Shown one piece after another: positions 51,701 through 54,700 of a DNA stretch of 64,000 bases. Origin of the DNA: Candidatus Gottesmanbacteria bacterium (lineage in GTDB: Bacteria; Patescibacteriota; Microgenomatia; UBA10105; UBA927); assembly GCA_030679255.1 (NCBI GenBank), contig JAUXTO010000018.1, positions 2,973 to 66,972 of the forward strand, given 5' to 3'. A program made the position numbers and the translations under genes. The notes below the pieces were generated by a model, which ran no database searches, was not told the DNA's origin, and was given only the letters and a program-made list of their open reading frames with translations. Position 1 is the first letter of the stretch, and every line of letters begins with the position of its first letter.

Positions 51701-54700
51701 AGCGCGGCGCGTTGCCCAGAGCGGTCTGGTGGGAAGGGGTGAAATTCTGGCTCGGAACTGCCGGAGAATTTCGGAAAAATTGGGAAATATTTACGAGACA
51801 ACGATCGCGGCAACGGGTTGATGATTCTGTCACTATCGCTCCAACCGAGGTGGCGAAGGATGCCCAGGAAGCGGGGATCCCCACGGCCACCAAAAAATCC
51901 CCTTTCAGGGATTACTTGGTAAGCATAACAAGTTCGCTTAATGGCCGGCTTGATAACCTTGTAAAGAGGATACCATTTTATAGCATTCTTGTCAAGATGT
52001 TGGGTGTGGACTCGCCGGGATTCGCACCCGGTAGGCCTGGGTTATCAAGCCGGCCTAGCGAACGTGCCGAGCCCACACCAAATTCAAGTATATCACGGGC
52101 ACTTCAGGCCCTTTCCGCCTGGTGGGGGAGGGTGAGGACAAATGCAGCTGCTCTCACTCTTCCATTGGCAAACGTTCTGGGAGATGCGGCAACAGATTTA
52201 GAAAAAGACTGTCGCATCGGCCTCCTTCCCACTCCCCCAGCCTTCGCGCAAGCCCGCCTGCCGGCAGGGCAAGGCTACGGACCGACCCCGGCCGTGCTTG
52301 GGGATAGTAAAAATGCGCAAGATTTACTTCTTGGAGCGTTTGACTGGAGACTGTCCTCATTTCCCGGAAGTTCGGCTGGGAGTTCGATGAGATCGATCCG
52401 TACGGATAACGGCGTAGGCAAACAAAACAATGAGCATCATGAGCAGCGTATAGGCGATAGCCGTATTCGTCAAGAAGTCCTGGATTTGGATAGTTCCTAT
52501 CATAATGATTTACTCCTTTCAGATACCCAAAGGCCTATCAACAATCCCACTATACCAAAAGAAATATTTTTCGTCAACAATGTGGCAGAGGCGGTAAATG
52601 ATGCAGTGGTCAAGCTGGGAGCGATCAGTACGACGCCAAACCAGCCAGAGGAGAGGTTAAATGATACGGCCGCCAGTCCCTCCATGAGTGTTCTGCGAGA
52701 GCACAGTTTCATTGCTCCCTACAGTACCACCGGCAGCGATCTGTTGTCAAATTTCTCTCTCATGCCCCGAGCCTATGCGGTAAGTCCCGAGCGCAGTCGA
52801 GGGGTAGCCGACGGTCAAGTATTGGCAGTCCGGACGGGCGGGTGTTCGCAATTGACCTTGGCCGCAGCAAAGGGACTTCTCGCCGCGAGTGATTATACTC
52901 GTAATGATCTTCCCCAGCCGCCGATCGTTGTTCTTTGGAACGCAACACAGCGATCATTCAATCCGGCCTTGCAAGATATTCGTACCCGTTGGCAGCAGAT
53001 GATGAGCCCGGGTCAGCAAATTGTGGGCGAGAGTAGATTATATCTCCAAGACAAACTCTCTCCCCGACCCGATCCCGTCGGCCTCGGCGGGGGAGGAGGG
53101 CCAACGAGTTCATCGATGGATAAACCGAAAGCATCCGGAGATGAACAGTTCGGATTCAGCGTTGAAATTCCGGGTGATTCTTCCCGGGTCACTCTCGGCA
53201 GAGACGGTGATCGAGACATATCCATCGGTGATCCGTCAGTTTCACGAAATCACGGAGAGATTATTGTGGACCATGGGACATACTATTATGAAGATCGTGG
53301 CTTCACGAATGGTTCATTTGTCAATGACGTATCAGTGTTGACAATGGAGGATATGAGGATTGAGTTAAAGTCAGGAGACACCATCCAATTGGGAAGTGCG
53401 CAATTTGTATTTACCCCGGGGAAGAACGGATTTACCCTTCTGCGTGCTCCATCTGAGTTTTCCACATACGGGAAGTCGCTCAATGTGAGGCTCTGGCTCT
53501 CATCTGCTAGGTCTGATGATCGGTTATCCGGGGAGGAGCTTCAGAGGCTTATCAATCAAGTATCCATCATAGAACAAGCTGCCCGGATAGCACGGCGGAT
53601 TCAATTGCAGGCTGTTTCGTACCCGTATTTGTCCCATATCTTCTATCGGGGTGACGCGGACAGGTGGTATTACCAAGGTGCACAAGGCGTACGCGTGTAT
53701 CTTGACGCTGACCAGTCCGTGCAATTTGAAGCATTACGTACGCTTTACGGAGAGCTCCTCCGTATCCATTCCTCACTTGCCCTTTCCGGAGGAGTGGACG
53801 CAGTTCCTCAGGATGGAGATGTTCCGGCAATCCAACAATTTGCCCAAACCATCCAGCTATCGACAAACCGGATCGGTACTCTTGCTTTTATTTCTCAGGC
53901 AATTACTAAAAATAAAGAGAGTCAGGAGCCTATGGTCCGGCAGTATGGGGAGATGTTGATCAGGATACGAAACCTTTGGGAGGCTGCATTGATCTATCCG
54001 GAAAATTTTGATCAGATACTGCGAAGTGAATTTCAGGAGACGCCGGAAGTGGCAGAGGAAATTCTCGATTATATGCATGGAAAATTGAACAATACTCCGG
54101 TTGGAGAGGATTTTGACCGGATGTTTACCAATGAATCACAATCCTATGGGTATGGGGTCGTGCCTCAGGGCGTGATCCGTGGGTTGCTGCTTGCCGAGCA
54201 GGGAATGATCCGCCAATTTCTTCCGGATACCTATCAGGATTATTACCGGCAGAGCCTGCAGGAGCTTAATGCACAGATGCGCGCAACAGGTATGACGGAA
54301 TTTGAAGGCAGCCGGTATGTCAAAAGGGGGGAAGACGCGTGGTACTTTAATCTTAATCTCCGTCATAGGACATACGGAGCTCATGGAAATTCAGATGGGT
54401 TTGTCTCCGTCATCGAGCCAATAGCATATACCAAGGCTTTGAGTACGGATGCCTACGCCAGGCTCATCGCCCAAAACAAGACACATGAGATGCTGCATCA
54501 ATTGCTTGAGGGTATGGTTAGCATCAACCGCTCATCGTATGGACCTGACACGACGGAGGAAGCGTTTGTGGAGCTTTATGCCCGCTTGTTATCCGGAGTA
54601 GACCCTTCCAAATTTACCGGATATTATGATTTACCGACGCATCGTTTGTATCAGTTGGTACAGGAAGCCGCACAAGTCAAGCACATGACTCCCGCCAGAG

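Follow-up and report, generated by a model that had tools for sequence, protein, structure and literature searches.

We analyzed a 64,000-nucleotide stretch (the window) of contig JAUXTO010000018.1 from the Candidatus Gottesmanbacteria assembly GCA_030679255.1, positions 2,973 to 66,972 of the forward strand, in which one giant open reading frame (ORF) carries an FHA domain. An earlier note on this DNA, made from the sequence alone, had read the segment FGFSVEIPGDSSRVTLGRDGDRDISIGDPSVSRNHGEIIVDHGTYYYEDRGFTNGSFVNDVSVLTMEDMRIELKSGDTIQLGSAQFVFTP (nt 53149–53418, aa 16526–16615 of the giant ORF) as a phosphothreonine (pThr)-binding FHA domain, a reading that our results support as essentially right. 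We regard it as practically certain that nt 53128–53445 encode a genuine FHA domain, which by itself belongs to a well-known family and is unremarkable within it. What is new is the company it keeps: its direct conserved partner is an uncharacterized helical domain with an HExxH motif, followed in the lineage of the window by a Fic-like domain. The architecture is thus that of an internal FHA domain heading an unannotated HExxH/Fic-like cassette, within an adapter-jointed protein of more than 20,000 aa from the candidate phyla radiation (CPR). The giant frame and the features of this cassette, in window coordinates, are as follows.

3574–63999 (+), giant open frame of 20,142 codons with no stop, running off the 3' end of the window
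51844–52953 (+), adapter copy 1 (aa 16091–16460), located by self-BLAST and a hidden Markov model (HMM)
53086–53100 (+), poly-Gly hinge GGGGG (aa 16505–16509), located by regular expression
53128–53445 (+), FHA domain (aa 16519–16624), its extent taken from the modeled strands and slightly wider than the flagged interval
53188–53394 (+), core of the FHA domain as matched by Pfam
53419–54948 (+), helical domain after the FHA domain (aa 16616–17125), candidate zincin-like
54484–54498 (+), HExxH motif HEMLH (aa 16971–16975)
aa 17070–17075 (+), CxGxCP motif
55960–56256 (+), Fic-like domain (aa 17463–17561), Pfam Fic 21.2 bits against a cutoff of 24
56200–56235 (+), degenerate Fic motif HPVSNFNGRLGH, in place of HxFx[DE]GNGRxxR

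The giant ORF likely starts at the ATG at 3745 or 3763. It is not an artefact of one assembly, because the contig L002 from an independent Logan assembly (SRR13727518) is identical to window nt 1–12,358, with a gene call for the giant ORF of at least 10,457 aa that runs off its contig, and because L001, a 7-kb contig from another metagenome-assembled genome (MAG), is also a single open frame. L001 was the one close orthologue fragment in the genome-contig search and is colinear with window aa 16484–17691 at 74% identity. We consider it extremely improbable that the giant ORF, or the junction that brings the FHA domain together with a kinase and a phosphatase, arose by chimeric assembly or belongs to a decaying pseudogene, which would leave the FHA domain outside any functional protein. 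The sequence is metagenome-derived, its 3' end lies outside the window, and independent corroboration is limited to the initial ~12 kb and to ~3.6 kb of orthologous sequence. However, an open run of 20,142 sense codons at the window's GC of about 49% can neither arise by chance nor persist through decay, the domains neighboring the FHA domain have ratios of nonsynonymous to synonymous substitution rates (dN/dS) of 0.14–0.23, and catalytic motifs are intact.

The interval given in the earlier note, 53150–53420, is one base out of frame and contains stops when translated literally, while the sequence quoted there is exact in the frame of 53149 and contains every element of the signature it described: G-R, S-R, N-H, the loop GFTNGSFVN, and GDTIQLG...FVF. 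Pfam FHA (PF00498), the profile on which the note had said its call should stand or fall, matches the segment at 59.7 bits (E 3.8e-16, profile positions 1–67 of 67) against a gathering cutoff of 20.7 bits. The same profile scores 54 bits with a 4,900-aa chunk as the query, and a loose FHA regular expression finds a single site in the ORF and 0 matches across 300 shuffles. The FHA fold is a β-sandwich of about 11 strands. The AlphaFold2 (AF2) model of aa 16507–16631, from an input multiple sequence alignment of 5 sequences only, is an all-β sandwich with 10 strands called between model residues 13 and 118 (predicted local distance difference test, pLDDT, 82.1; predicted template modeling score, pTM, 0.76). 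This agrees with the fold that the note had expected, and the pThr-binding Arg and Ser are in place. All 50 of the best matches listed by Foldseek against the PDB are FHA domains, with E values among those listed down to 4e-6 and target-normalised TM-scores up to 0.73, and they include the pThr-peptide complexes of Rad53 FHA1, DgcB, and RNF8. By sequence, the nearest solved structures are GarA, OdhI, Rv1827, Rv1747 FHA-2, ArnA, and DgcB, all of which read pThr, the GarA/OdhI-type matches having E values of 3e-7 to 1e-6. NCBIfam indicates domain-level similarity to TagH and FhaB/FipA (TagH 35.9 bits against a cutoff of 120). A search for homologous proteins with the FHA domain and its flanks returned only two generic FHA proteins, and with the FHA domain alone returned none. 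The "FHA" of one Patescibacterium paper is the haemagglutinin FhaB rather than an FHA domain and was set aside.

The pThr pocket of the window FHA domain is complete, with G16542-R16543, S16557-R-N-H16560, and T16578-N16579-G16580, and in the alignment these residues fall in the columns that are invariant among GarA, OdhI, P0001, and P0002. Based on this pocket, we predict that the domain binds pThr. The codons of four of the pocket residues are:

53200–53202 (+), R16543
53242–53244 (+), S16557
53251–53253 (+), H16560
53308–53310 (+), N16579

Pfam finds nothing in the ~850 residues that follow the FHA domain, and then a sub-threshold Fic match. An exhaustive phmmer search of 1.84 billion representatives with aa 16616–17616 gave 13 matches. 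Among these, P0003 is a fragment of a close lineage (71% identity), P0004 is a protein of 1,973 aa with 34% identity over query residues 36–487, and the two short fragments P0008 and P0010, of 93 and 98 aa, each cover part of the helical domain. A single BLASTP high-scoring segment pair against P0004 (E 4e-73) runs colinearly through the FHA domain and the next ~490 residues; because it spans both, the two domains form, as judged by alignment, one evolutionary unit with the FHA domain at its N-terminus. Only two lineages were found to carry this rare cassette. The scaffolds that encode P0004 and P0018, its cluster-mate of 4,652 aa, are from aquifer-type metagenomes (L003–L005, GC 40%), and on them very large genes follow one another on the same strand. 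The domain order in L003 is Macro, FHA-like, helical domain, GNAT, and that of the window is GNAT, then further on adapter, FHA, helical domain, Fic-like. P0018 itself begins with the Macro domain, followed by its degenerate FHA domain. Just upstream of the P0018 gene, L003 2755–5403 (+) encodes DUF7790, a non-canonical FHA domain, and an HD phosphohydrolase. FHA-like domains thus recur beside different enzyme domains in giant-gene arrays of the CPR type.

The helical domain contains a conserved block, K-T-H-E-x-L-H-Q-L-L ... Y-G-P-x-x-T-E-E-A-F-x-E-L-Y, followed by CxGxCP. In thermolysin, the third ligand is a Glu about 20 residues after the second His of HExxH. E16995 lies exactly 20 residues after the second His of HEMLH. 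The HExxH motif is conserved in L001 and P0004, and P0003 reads HVMLH. By our own estimate from composition, about 0.2 HExxH motifs are expected in the ORF, and 3 are observed. The helical domain has no match in Pfam, and none in the PDB by sequence or profile search; its AF2 model has a pLDDT of 45 and is unusable. We therefore refer to it as a candidate zincin, at the level of the motif only. The two further HExxH motifs are HELTH at aa 9155 (nt ~31036–31050) and HEAIH at aa 19967 (nt ~63472–63486), the latter after the kinase described below.

The Fic-like domain belongs to the cassette in the lineage of the window, where it comes after a variable stretch. In the phmmer search, this region matched ten proteins (ids given, P0005–P0007, P0009, and P0011–P0015) with E values of 5e-20 to 9e-4. 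A Pfam scan of eight of these relatives, which left out P0015, found Fic in seven of them, with P0009 under and the other six over the 24-bit cutoff, and no match in P0005. Since most of the scanned relatives match Pfam Fic, the window domain appears to be a real relative of the Fic proteins despite its degenerate motif. Its dN/dS of 0.14 against L001 indicates strong purifying selection, which suggests that its function has been altered rather than lost.

The earlier note had placed a Hanks kinase and a PPP phosphatase in the same giant ORF as the FHA domain. The features that bear on this are:

61351–62163 (+), Hanks-type Ser/Thr kinase (aa 19260–19530), Pfam Pkinase 130 bits
20611–21327 (+), PPP-type/calcineurin-like signature (aa 5680–5918)
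20617–20631 (+), DIHGD, first motif of the PPP triad (aa 5682)
20758–20778 (+), GDKLDRG, second motif (aa 5729)
20953–20964 (+), GNHE, third motif (aa 5794)

The kinase is clear: its Pkinase (PF00069) score compares with a cutoff of 31.7 bits, the PknB-like model of NCBIfam scores 119 bits, and the catalytic motifs are intact, including the G-loop GKGGIAKV, VAIK, HRDIKPKN, DLG, and APE. Located about 2,650 residues downstream of the FHA domain, it looks to be an active enzyme, as far as these motifs can tell. The PPP triad lies about 10,700 residues upstream of the FHA domain. It is not attributable to chance, because the ordered motifs are expected from composition only about 3e-8 times per ORF. 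The starts of the motifs are 46 and 64 aa apart; typical PPP spacing is ~25–30 aa. We accept a predicted PPP-type phosphoesterase signature here and assign neither family membership nor substrate class. The segment had no match in the PDB, NCBIfam, PHROGs, or PADLOC, and a homologue search found none. A possible fourth PPP motif, IMQHTD, is seen at about aa 5884–5889.

As the earlier note had described, the FHA domain stands directly behind an adapter module and a poly-Gly hinge, namely adapter copy 1 and the Gly5 run at aa 16505–16509. This run ends about 10–17 residues before the first FHA strand, is kept in L001, and is joined to the FHA domain by the conserved linker PTSSSMDKPKASGDEQ. The adapter is a low-complexity unit of about 340–370 aa, rich in Ser, Pro, Thr, and Asn, and an HMM built from its copies finds exactly three in the ORF. 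In addition to copy 1, these are:

56386–57444 (+), adapter copy 2 (aa 17605–17957), followed by a Gly7 hinge and a different payload
57529–57549 (+), Gly7 hinge after adapter copy 2
60238–61263 (+), adapter copy 3 (aa 18889–19230), directly upstream of the kinase

An alignment of six copies, three from the window and three from L001, contains conserved islands at N[QH]P..R, STT, SNFS[LF].P..YA, GQVLA..TGGCS, AKGL, and RN.LPQ.PN, and four of the six are followed by poly-Gly. The adapter and Gly unit precedes differing payloads, these being the FHA cassette, a second payload common to L001, and the kinase, although the Gly run is missing between adapter copy 3 and the kinase. Together, the adapter/poly-Gly joints take up the last ~4,000 residues of the protein, with several payloads strung between them, the FHA cassette being one. 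The TGGCS of the adapter was considered as a Hint/Hedgehog-type N-terminus and rejected, as the stretch between it and the poly-Gly is not long enough and contains no TxxH; as a lipobox it was rejected for its poor fit. Two further internal duplications, both of unannotated modules, were also noted, one at 43% identity (aa 12149–12281 and 14079–14209) and the other with both copies beginning at a poly-Gly run (aa 17986–18098 and 18787–18899, 37% identity).

Between the window and L001 (window 52921–56646, L001 1814–5437), the synonymous rate (dS) varies about 40-fold along ~3.6 kb, from 0.06 in the FHA domain to 0.17 in the adjoining region and 1.6–2.8 further on. The adapter copies upstream of the FHA domain are also arranged differently in L001. 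Because dS exceeds 1.5 within a few hundred codons of the FHA domain, where it is 0.06, the region reads as a mosaic of shuffled cassettes, a pattern that indicates probable recent recombination or cassette exchange at the adapters.

In the mechanism that we favor, and to which we give about an even chance as a whole, the FHA domain would be a pThr-dependent docking module coupled to the kinase of the same ORF. The Hanks kinase would write pThr sites, the FHA domain would bind these sites, and docking would position or gate the fused HExxH and Fic-like domains, with the distant PPP-like domain as a possible eraser. The pThr binding, the same-ORF kinase as the writer, the identity of the ligand, and the compartment of action are parts that we infer. 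The Ser/Thr-rich adapters, with their conserved STT island, are plausible phospho-acceptors. Only the lineage of the window combines a fully canonical pocket with a kinase in the ORF; neither kinase nor adapter was detected in 29 kb of L003. This weak co-variation is suggestive and rests on the two lineages compared. A more elaborate version, which we consider very unlikely, is a polyprotein with its own pThr reader (the FHA domain), writer (the kinase), and eraser (the PPP-like domain), in which the FHA domain would gate the HExxH and Fic-like domains and which would work either by phospho-dependent self-processing at the adapters or by hijacking the Ser/Thr-kinase and FHA threat sensing of a host.

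Several observations pull against such a coupling. The L001 FHA domain is 91% identical to that of the window, and two of its eight substitutions, R16558Q and N16579S, fall on ligand-contact positions; by our own estimate, that number of hits on about 7 pocket positions falls short of significance (p about 0.1). The dN/dS of the FHA domain against L001 is ~0.8, from few changes (about 14 substitutions), versus 0.23 in the adjoining helical domain and 0.14 in the Fic-like domain. In P0004, the homologous domain has GL in place of GR and SxxL in place of SxxH, and Pfam FHA no longer matches. Since this distant relative has lost the phosphate-binding Arg and His, pThr binding does not appear to be a conserved property of the cassette. 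The proposed eraser is also uncertain: Pfam Metallophos (PF00149) scores the PPP segment at 17.0 bits (E 0.008) against a cutoff of 21.5, over profile positions 6–186 of 191, and with this sub-threshold score and the negative databases we do not assign the segment to the Metallophos family. Thus, of the three partners that the earlier note saw in one ORF, the FHA domain and kinase hold, and the phosphatase holds as a motif triad and not as a family match. Thousands of residues separate the FHA domain from the kinase and from the PPP-like segment, in a protein with many unrelated enzyme domains (GNAT, LytR-CpsA-Psr (LCP), Fic-like, and Hint), and the co-occurrence may be incidental; a shared ORF of 20,000 aa is weaker evidence of partnership than a compact operon.

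The same data bear on whether the FHA domain has a phospho-independent role, as a scaffold or protein–protein interaction domain like the cytoplasmic FHA domains of the YscD/EscD type in type III secretion systems, with no link to the kinase. The Yop-YscD_cpl model of Pfam is above its threshold on the segment at 43.6 bits, and relatives keep the domain and not the pocket: besides P0004, the second FHA domain of the L003 upstream gene (Pfam 26.7 bits) has GK and, with Ala for Ser, A..H, and L001 has SQ and TSG. The FHA dN/dS of ~0.8 next to constrained flanking domains would also fit. However, the window copy keeps every canonical pThr-contact residue, which is unexpected for an irrelevant pocket, the dN/dS value depends on only about 14 substitutions, and the FHA model outscores YscD_cpl by 59.7 to 43.6 bits. 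We consider this phospho-independent role unlikely.

The topology of the protein raises the question of where the domain acts. The features concerned are:

49228–49284 (+), transmembrane (TM) helix (aa 15219–15237) with an Arg-rich N-flank
49780–50316 (+), LCP domain, about 165 residues after the TM helix

Hydropathy places TM helices at aa 76–94 (N-terminal and signal-anchor-like), in a hairpin at aa 5316–5357, and at aa 15219–15237, with no clear TM helix between the last of these and the FHA domain. The order of a TM helix and then an LCP domain is classic for LCP proteins, which are anchored in the membrane with the domain outside the cytoplasm, an in-to-out crossing; here it occurs deep within the giant ORF. 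A model that fits both the positive-inside rule and this TM–LCP order would put the FHA, Fic-like, and kinase domains outside the cytoplasm of the producer, which sits poorly with docking inside the cell; the assignment is ambiguous, and the parity of the topology is uncertain because of the hairpin at aa 5316–5357. A GNAT domain (46363–46641) and a weak GDSL-like match are also found near the LCP domain.

An external location would suit an array that is delivered or presented to a host bacterium, where the FHA domain could bind phosphoproteins of the host, or sites phosphorylated by the kinase delivered with it, thereby targeting the attached enzymes or disturbing host Ser/Thr signaling. Patescibacteria live on other bacteria, and actinobacterial hosts sense them by a Ser/Thr kinase pathway in which an FHA protein is phosphorylated on Thr (PMC13622651). 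The signal-anchor-like N-terminus and the TM–LCP order with no clear later TM helix are consistent with export. So is the set of effector or conflict domains (Fic-like, kinase, and GNAT, with Macro, HD, and a NADAR and Fic protein among the relatives), and the shuffled cassettes with mosaic dS are as in polymorphic effector arrays. The window FHA domain is most similar to the actinobacterial GarA and OdhI, but this similarity is at the domain level only, at about 30% identity. Against delivery, the topology comes from crude hydropathy with an ambiguous helix count, the analysis identified neither a domain for secretion or translocation nor a cleavage protease or immunity gene, and PADLOC gave only generic kinase and Fic-like models. 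We view delivery as possible and somewhat doubtful, and a link between the published host pathway and this locus is speculation. It differs from the favored docking mechanism in where and on whom the FHA domain acts, not in what the domain is. Separately, a defense-system reading was dropped, since PADLOC on the ORF returned only generic kinase and weak Fic-like (PDC-S04) matches.

Of the known systems, GarA and OdhI (also FhaA and the FHA domain of Rv1747) are the closest solved relatives in sequence and fold. They share the pocket GR, SRxH, NG and read pThr made by Hanks kinases (PknB/PknG). They differ in being small stand-alone proteins with an N-terminal ETTS phospho-motif that bind metabolic enzymes, whereas the window FHA domain, about 30% identical, lies near residue 16,500, inside a protein that exceeds 20,000 aa and in which HExxH and Fic-like domains are joined to it. 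Rad53/Chk2-type proteins and bacterial fusions of Ser/Thr kinases with FHA domains resemble the window protein in having both in one polypeptide, which would allow phospho-dependent self-association. In the window, however, ~2,650 residues with two adapters and payloads lie between the two, there is no SQ/TQ cluster, and the conserved neighbor of the FHA domain is not the kinase.

The earlier note had named Hanks kinases and PPP phosphatases as the usual partners of FHA domains. Here a caveat applies: bacterial modules of an FHA protein and a Hanks kinase are usually paired with a PP2C (PPM) phosphatase rather than a PPP, and no PP2C domain was found in the ORF. In separate-gene triads, such as Fha1-PpkA-PppA of the type VI secretion system (T6SS) and mycobacterial FhaA/FhaB-PknB-PstP, the phosphatase is of the PP2C type and the genes form compact operons. 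EsrG-EsrE-EsrF is likewise a triad of FHA protein, kinase, and phosphatase in separate genes (PMC13622651). What these triads share with the window is the joint encoding of a reader, a writer, and a possible eraser for Thr phosphorylation. The window differs in that these lie in one frame, thousands of residues apart, with a sub-threshold candidate of the PPP type as the phosphatase. The window is essentially a single gene with no T6SS, Esx, or cell-division genes, and it does not contain an operon-type pathway of FHA protein, Ser/Thr kinase, and PP2C.

In overall build, the protein is more like the "Archaeovorins" of Omnitrophota, giant multi-domain proteins of uncultured bacteria (West-Roberts et al. 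2023, doi 10.1101/2023.11.21.568195), in having a very long ORF with many unrelated enzyme domains, large unannotated stretches, suspected post-translational processing, and shuffled cassettes. That giant-gene survey makes no mention of FHA domains or inteins and treats the CPR as predators, not carriers (doi 10.1101/2023.11.21.568195). The same likeness extends to modular multi-effector toxins of the MARTX-like and polymorphic kinds. Unlike either group, the window protein has few TM helices, and SecA-DEAD, C39/S8 peptidase, RTX, CPD, and Rhs/YD elements were not detected in the ORF.

Genomes of Patescibacteria (CPR) are characteristically small and reduced. Only 149 of 2.1 million NCBI proteins of Patescibacteria exceed 4,000 aa (PMC11809585). 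What matters about the FHA domain is its setting, with a predicted pThr reader and an apparently active kinase in one gene of more than 60 kb from a small-genome group. The FHA domain (about 125 aa) and the kinase (about 300 aa) are also small, expressible handles on an otherwise intractable giant protein. If the array does act on a host, it would tie in with host detection of Patescibacteria through Ser/Thr kinases and FHA proteins (PMC13622651); if the FHA domain is simply an intracellular docking domain, the gene would still be extraordinary but the annotation of the domain routine.

Outside the C-terminal region, the first ~14,000 residues of the protein have nearly no Pfam matches, with only a sub-threshold ResIII-like match (aa 3474–3611), the PPP-like triad, and one Hint domain. 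The two Hint domains of the ORF are:

34171–35154 (+), intein-like (Hint) domain
46969–47886 (+), intein-like (Hint) domain

They are 33% identical to each other and resemble DnaB mini-inteins, with an insert of about 150 aa and with the TxxH block and C-terminal HN|T intact. At the N-terminal junction that the Ssp DnaB alignment predicts, no Cys or Ser is seen, and because of this the domains might cleave instead of splice, or use a non-canonical mechanism.

A tblastn search of phage and plasmid records gave no match and two scans of viral contigs found none, leaving a phage or plasmid origin without support. In metagenome contigs, a single-protein query found none and a core-alignment query found only the P0004 lineage. 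The genes upstream of the giant ORF are:

1279–2358, M23/LysM peptidase gene, exact match to MDP1722078.1
2432–2504 (+), tRNA-Ala
2520–3095 (−), 191-aa "four helix bundle suffix domain" gene, exact match to MDP1722079.1
3097–3171 (−), tRNA-Ala

Both matching proteins are from a 70,122-bp contig in a MAG of Candidatus Gottesmanbacteria, which is placed in the Patescibacteria/Microgenomates group. L001 is labelled Gammaproteobacteria, as opposed to these Gottesmanbacteria neighbors of the window, which reflects either mis-binning or transfer; we set that MAG label aside for the window. The two tRNA-Ala genes, with GGC and CGC anticodons, are on opposite strands and flank the 191-aa gene just upstream of the giant ORF.

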